DNA from: a virus | Taxonomy: Duplodnaviria > Heunggongvirae > Uroviricota > Caudoviricetes | Direction: 5' to 3' (one strand) | Length of the DNA stretch: 16,347 nucleotides | Virus record (IMG/VR): IMGVR_UViG_2529292905_000024 | In this document: positions 9,748 through 9,837 of the stretch, in pieces | How the letters are laid out: each line of letters opens with the position of its first letter | Numbering within the stretch: position 1 is the first letter of the stretch | Translations under genes and position numbers: made by a program | Notes under the pieces: generated by a model | Databases searched by the model: none | Told to the model about the DNA's origin: nothing | What the model saw: the letters and a program-made list of their open reading frames with translations, nothing else

Positions 9748-9837
9748 TCAATCAGAAAGGCGATCCATAAGAACAATAGCAAGACAATAAATTGCCACTA
9801 CAGCCGCAATAGCCAGCGCGCATTTGAGAACCAGCAC
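9748..9837 (-). CDS. Small hydrophobic peptide ORF (29 aa), unassigned
   Basis: Perfect SD AGGAGG 5 nt upstream of a GTG start; translation MLVLKCALAIAAVVAIYCLAIVLMDRLSD is a single predicted TM helix with a charged tail; lies between the SIR2-like gene and the hok leader. Confidence 0.35.
   Translation of the reverse strand: MLVLKCALAIAAVVAIYCLAIVLMDRLSD

Follow-up and report, generated by a model that had tools for sequence, protein, structure and literature searches.

A 29-codon open reading frame (ORF) lying between a SIR2-like gene and hok is probably a genuine small gene of Rac-like and lambdoid Escherichia prophages, one that encodes an accessory inner-membrane peptide, carries a weak promoter, and forms the constant flank of a slot for variable cargo. 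Within this reading, the conclusion that the ORF is a protein-coding gene for a predicted membrane peptide is well supported by comparison with related sequences.

The ORF was examined in a 16,347-nucleotide stretch of viral DNA (IMG/VR record IMGVR_UViG_2529292905_000024, Caudoviricetes; hereafter the window), which represents a Rac-like/lambdoid prophage and shares 99.9% identity with chromosomes of E. coli O55:H7. The gene order on the minus strand is a DUF977 replication-module gene, a SIR2_2-domain gene, the small ORF, hok/sok, a gene pair matching Rosmer, DUF968, RusA, and Q. The features on which the analysis turns are the following, in window coordinates.

9908–10939, minus strand: SIR2_2-domain gene (Pfam PF13289, E = 1e-5; weak PADLOC matches to Aga_SIR2 and PDC-S21).
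9898–9903, minus strand: position of the −35 hexamer in other lineages; here ATGCGA, part of the SIR2 cargo.
9869–9880, minus strand: conserved block CATATTTATCAG, which contains CATATT (9880–9875), the putative −10 hexamer; predicted transcription start near 9868.
9843–9848, minus strand: Shine-Dalgarno sequence AGGAGG, 5 nt from the start codon.
9748–9837, minus strand: small ORF of 29 codons with GTG start and TGA stop, encoding MLVLKCALAIAAVVAIYCLAIVLMDRLSD (assigned from its frame and by comparison).
9712–9740, minus strand: hok promoter TTGGCG-17-TAGAAT (promoter scan), beginning 7 nt past the small-ORF stop.
9534–9705, minus strand: hok mRNA leader and sok region (Rfam RF01794, 100.6 bits).
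9381–9536, minus strand: coding sequence of the HokD-type Hok toxin, 51 aa.

The Rosmer pair lies directly 3′ of hok on the minus strand (7481–9215) and consists of RmrT (216 aa, E = 4.6e-25) and RmrA (368 aa, E = 6e-105), both identified with PADLOC; with the SIR2 gene and hok, these genes make up a small defence cluster within the prophage. PGAP places the start of the SIR2 family protein 24 codons 3′ of the first ATG, giving 319 aa rather than the 343 aa of the full ORF, and a tblastn search of 50,697 phage records with the SIR2 protein of the window returned no homologue.

Read along the minus strand, AGGAGG (9848–9843) is followed by the spacer TTATC (9842–9838), the GTG start codon (9837–9835), and a frame that closes at TGA (9750–9748). 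Every element of the arrangement that the earlier note had described (AGGAGG, a 5-nt spacer, GTG, and 29 codons) is thus present, and the coordinates bear out the 70 nt it gave between the small ORF and the end of the SIR2-like ORF (9908) on the same strand. The peptide consists of a hydrophobic helix spanning approximately residues 2–24 and an acidic/basic tail, DRLSD, in agreement with the single helix and short charged tail previously proposed. Its maximum Kyte-Doolittle value over 19 residues is 2.84 and its GRAVY is 1.90, and it ranks first in hydrophobicity among the 97 ORFs of 25–40 aa in the window. A lipoprotein signal was considered and rejected by eye, as neither Cys is preceded by a lipobox. 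The translation signals carry little weight by themselves: the window contains a single AGGAGG-N4-8-DTG where chance alone predicts 1.5, and the case for a gene therefore rests on comparison with related sequences.

We assembled two sets of relatives for this purpose. In the first, homologous regions in IMG/VR were picked by two anchors outside the ORF (CATATTTATCAG upstream and ATATTGGCGAG at the other end), and all 34 distinct segments obtained keep the 29-codon frame, the sole length change being a 1-nt indel 5′ of the ORF. The second, collected by BLAST, comprises 199 copies and 65 distinct alleles; 62 of these are intact, one has lost its stop codon and extends to 31 aa, and a 2-nt deletion is common to the other two. 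Substitutions in codons 2–29 were counted by parsimony on a neighbour-joining tree, and because the family is very narrow, the 80 changes inferred in this way derive from closely related, recombining sequences. They fall on codon positions 1, 2, and 3 in the proportion 25/11/44; 44 are synonymous, 36 are non-synonymous, and none creates a stop. When the same mutation spectrum was re-placed randomly, 23.9±4.0 synonymous changes were expected, and 0 of 5000 simulations reached 44. The earlier note had named reading-frame conservation and synonymous-biased substitution in related prophages as a check on the ORF, and both are found. The crude dN/dS ratio is approximately 0.35, and among the six possible frames, that of the small ORF is richest in synonymous changes; coding on the opposite strand was rejected, given that the complementary frame shows fewer synonymous changes and some that create stops.

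Rates and the nature of the replacements point in the same direction. The ORF has accumulated 0.95 events per site, compared with 1.9–2.2 in its flanks, and its amino-acid replacements are conservative (V/I/M, A/V/T, D/E, L/F, and S/T). A divergent allele (locus L028) differs from that of the window by nine synonymous and four conservative changes. AGGAG has undergone zero substitutions in the anchored set, whereas the spacer between it and the start codon varies; in a wider collection of 107 ORF-anchored loci, AGGAGG is found in 93 and the GTG start in 105. The allele of the Shigella virulence plasmid pINV starts with ATG. One lineage has mutations in the −35, the −10, and the Shine-Dalgarno sequence along with a 2-nt deletion in the frame, and such joint decay is expected if these signals serve the small ORF. 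Taken as a whole, the substitution pattern shows that purifying selection acts on the encoded amino-acid sequence.

The gene has largely escaped annotation. The earlier note had called it unannotated, which holds for RefSeq/PGAP and for four phage records; GenBank contains sporadic entries, designated "membrane protein" or "hypothetical protein" (ACT39199.1 in REL606; UniRef A0A0M1UIT1). Searches of Pfam, NCBIfam, PHROGs, PADLOC (which has no model for the peptide), and PDB sequences returned nothing. A HMMER search of 1.84 billion representative sequences recovered no relative below 80% identity, and many of the hits are gene calls over-extended at the N terminus. A codon-degenerate pattern matched only Escherichia and Shigella, plus three metagenome-assembled contigs bearing other genus names. 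These short contigs (L193, L194, and L196), assigned to Collinsella, Ca. Scatousia, and Haemophilus, bear the small-ORF/hok module of E. coli and are probably binning contamination. Text searches of the literature, whether with the peptide sequence or on small ORFs in the vicinity of hokD, yielded no paper on the gene, and the paper describing hokW-sokW does not mention an upstream ORF. SMP3 of a preprint on small proteins of strain CFT073 was considered as a candidate for this peptide; it is a different protein, belonging to DUF6404.

The SIR2-like gene, which the earlier note had suggested as a partner, proved to be one of many upstream neighbours. Of 5426 complete E. coli genomes, 2509 match the peptide segment, about 1846 of them over at least 80% of its length, and the arrangement with SIR2 is found in 45. 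Among 127 loci with enough upstream DNA for a survey, more than 40 unrelated gene families, on either strand, occupy the upstream position, and SIR2 accounts for seven. Other occupants include QueH, AbiH, PDC-S15, and, by eye, a HAD-like hydrolase and an MFS transporter; many proteins encoded in the slot (loci L007–L192; approximately 9890–11000 in the window) have no PADLOC match. Homology to other prophages (Tritos, mEp460, Evi, and HannyBb) begins at approximately 9890, 18 nt past the SIR2 stop. By this distribution, the stretch that separates the DUF977 gene from the small ORF is, across the surveyed loci, a hotspot of hypervariable cargo, and the range of families found there makes the small gene its constant right-hand flank rather than a companion of SIR2. 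The same genome counts show the small gene to be independent of SIR2. Two further elements were noted at this border: a promoter-like site on the opposite strand, approximately 85 nt 5′ of the small-ORF start and facing the cargo slot, in 79% of contexts, and, in the main lineage, a 6-bp inverted repeat, AACTAT-N5-ATAGTT, immediately 5′ of the putative −35.

The DNA between the cargo slot and the Shine-Dalgarno sequence contains a putative promoter. Four divergent lineages have TTGAAT, TTGAGT, or TTGAAG, a 17-nt spacer of variable sequence, and the invariant block that includes the putative −10, and the hexamers TTGAAT and CATATT are present in 83 of the 107 loci. The site agrees with the consensus at only 8 of 12 positions, and our promoter scan did not call it. 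We infer that TTGAAT-17-CATATT is a weak sigma-70 promoter of the small gene, from which the predicted leader would measure approximately 30 nt. In the window, the native −35 is absent, having been replaced by the SIR2-linked ATGCGA, and a scan of the window detected no terminator after SIR2 or after the small ORF; read-through from SIR2 is therefore the likely source of translated peptide here. Co-transcription with SIR2, another suggestion of the earlier note, is thus plausible in this window but incidental. Published differential RNA-seq of the Shigella M90T plasmid pWR100 lists no start where the small-gene promoter is predicted, nor any at the relic of the hok promoter (PMC7132871, Table S3). 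The nearest minus-strand starts on pWR100 are 90709, 90726, and 91318, the first two being those of icsP (PMC7132871). The putative promoter thus finds no support in the pWR100 data, although the region of the predicted start adjoins an H-NS-silenced zone.

Downstream, the small gene is frequently but not invariably joined to hok. It lies wholly outside the Rfam match to the hok leader and sok, which begins at 9705, and hok follows it in about 82% of the 107 ORF-anchored loci; 18 are without hok. In 15 loci that make up a non-hok context, homology stops at the stop codon of the small ORF and the next sequence is a short hairpin with a T-run, which we read as a terminator. In Shigella pINV, the intact small ORF is followed by the hok promoter, approximately 70 nt of hok leader, unrelated DNA, and icsP; this relic of the prophage module, with hok gone, spans positions 2950–3380 of our pWR100 locus (L004), approximately 200–320 nt 5′ of the icsP start sites. 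The converse arrangement, hok without the small gene, is that of most hok places, as approximately 10,770 places match a hok-containing query compared with approximately 2,978 for the ORF segment. These distributions show the two genes to be separable. The QueH cargo gene of ST131 and O157:H7 abuts the last seven codons of the small ORF (L203, 1490–1545; L202), which places a recombination junction inside the ORF and leaves its 3′ end joined to the hok promoter. Judging from this truncation in ST131 and O157, the small gene is dispensable. In E. coli B (L200, 2204–2613; BL21 Star(DE3)), a DUF977 coding sequence with an altered 3′ end has 40 nt in common with the small ORF, read in a different frame; the small ORF there retains a GGAG Shine-Dalgarno sequence, and its own promoter block is absent.

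Several other accounts of the small ORF were weighed against these data. The earlier note had proposed a second small membrane toxin, and in its specific form, a type I toxin beside hok that depolarises the membrane and is held silent by antisense RNA or by the structure of its mRNA, we regard this as unlikely. The architecture fits: type I toxins are small hydrophobic membrane peptides (less than about 60 aa), the product is one hydrophobic helix that ends in a short charged tail, and 29 aa falls within the size class of several of them. The frequent adjacency to hok also agrees with such a role, as does an antisense promoter-like site, TTAACT-18-TAAAAT (9719–9748), from which an RNA would cover the ORF in this window. 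This site, though, occurs in only 39% of distinct contexts and is absent from the non-hok class, and its −10 often loses the A at position 2 to a common T/C polymorphism; no conserved antisense RNA encoded in cis or nearby was found, and Rfam has no family over the small ORF. Nor was a leader structure masking the Shine-Dalgarno sequence detected. The predicted leader of approximately 30 nt and the ORF fold together at −43.9 kcal/mol, compared with −44.1±4.0 kcal/mol for shuffled sequences (z = 0.04), showing no excess structure, and the strong, conserved Shine-Dalgarno sequence is exposed. We found no complementarity or repeats between the initiation region of the ORF and the hok/sok leader. 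The peptide has no Pfam match at E values up to 1, including to Hok/Gef (PF01848), the adjacent 51-aa Hok being the product of a separate gene, and the small gene persists intact upstream of icsP on pINV without a partner. The proposal of a second toxin is hence weak, a canonical type I toxin is unsupported, and with its type I companions not found, a small accessory inner-membrane protein is favoured over a toxin. We also think it rather improbable that the peptide adds a third component, a protein, to prophage hok/sok loci, as a membrane helix binding Hok and dampening or potentiating it, or that it is a new stand-alone membrane effector, acting in superinfection exclusion or abortive infection from the border of a defence-gene hotspot.

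A cis-acting role, in which an upstream ORF or DNA element modulates the hok promoter or gives rise to a 5′-extended hok mRNA and the peptide itself is irrelevant, would suit the proximity of the small-ORF stop to the hok −35 (7 nt, with no terminator between) and the presence of hok 3′ in most loci. It would also suit the retention of the final ~25 nt of the ORF with the hok promoter where the remainder is deleted, which suggests that the 3′ end has a second role as upstream DNA of that promoter. A plain upstream ORF or promoter DNA would not, however, predict the synonymous excess or the conservative replacements, and the occurrence of each gene without the other speaks against it further; we judge such a role quite improbable. 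It is more doubtful still that the ORF is non-functional and only appears conserved through recent spread of a prophage module. The very narrow taxonomic range, the high identities, and the repeated loss or truncation of the gene would all be accommodated, but recent spread does not generate the observed bias among codon positions, a two-fold excess of synonymous changes, or a rate half that of the flanks, and it leaves unexplained why the Shine-Dalgarno sequence and start codon are kept around a variable spacer. The idea that the small ORF is co-transcribed with the SIR2-like defence gene and works as its partner or effector has an appeal that is local to the window, where the small ORF lies 70 nt 3′ on the same strand with no intervening terminator and with SIR2-linked DNA in place of its own −35, which makes co-transcription with SIR2 likely here. 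The rarity of the pairing across genomes and loci, the many families that substitute for SIR2, and the start of shared prophage sequence beyond the SIR2 stop leave this account with almost no probability, and the distribution effectively refutes it.

We therefore return to the accessory membrane peptide, for which the following scheme can be drawn. The compact unit would comprise the putative weak sigma-70 promoter, a strong Shine-Dalgarno sequence, and 29 codons, and its product would be a single-pass inner-membrane peptide, membrane insertion being predicted from hydrophobicity. The unit constitutes the constant right flank of a cargo slot extending from the DUF977 gene to hok/sok, ending 7 nt before the hok −35. 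In the window, SIR2 cargo has displaced the −35 of the unit, such that the peptide would most likely be made from SIR2 read-through mRNA, and with no terminator between, this mRNA would continue into hok. At native levels, the most likely action of the peptide is that of a prophage accessory membrane protein, perhaps through helix-helix contacts or mild perturbation of the membrane.

The small gene is very common: about 1846 of the 5426 complete E. coli genomes, E. coli B/BL21 among them, carry the full segment, as does Shigella pINV. Standard annotation overlooks small membrane proteins, and this one bears clear marks of selection. If functional, it adds a component to the accessory/defence region of lambdoid prophages, and it may affect transcription of hok. 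As the right-hand border of the hotspot, the gene is in addition a landmark for mining that slot for new cargo. Were the peptide a third component of hok/sok or a stand-alone effector, roughly one E. coli genome in three, as well as the Shigella virulence plasmid, would carry a member of a new family of small proteins.

Three known kinds of system come closest in form. The first comprises bacterial small single-pass inner-membrane proteins such as MgtS, AcrZ, and PmrR, a class revealed by ribosome profiling or tagging (reviewed in PMC12648545). Like members of this class, the peptide is shorter than 50 aa, has one hydrophobic helix and a strong Shine-Dalgarno sequence, was missed by annotation, and is kept among close relatives only; unlike them, it is prophage-borne, and it shares no sequence similarity with any of them. 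With type I toxins (Hok/Gef, TisB, ZorO, Ibs, and Ldr), it has in common its size, its helix-plus-charged-tail layout, and a location physically beside hok/sok, and it departs from them in its exposed, strong Shine-Dalgarno sequence and in lacking a conserved antisense RNA gene, a long structured leader, and a Hok_Gef match. Phage morons are autonomous units of promoter and gene, sometimes with a terminator, that lie between the genes of prophage operons and are expressed in lysogens. The small gene resembles these in being a compact unit with a putative promoter and, in the non-hok context, a hairpin, and in its position within accessory DNA flanked by the replication and Q modules, beside hok, Rosmer, and variable cargo. 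It differs from morons in that no terminator precedes hok and its −35 is replaced in the window, and at 29 codons, it is unusually small for one.
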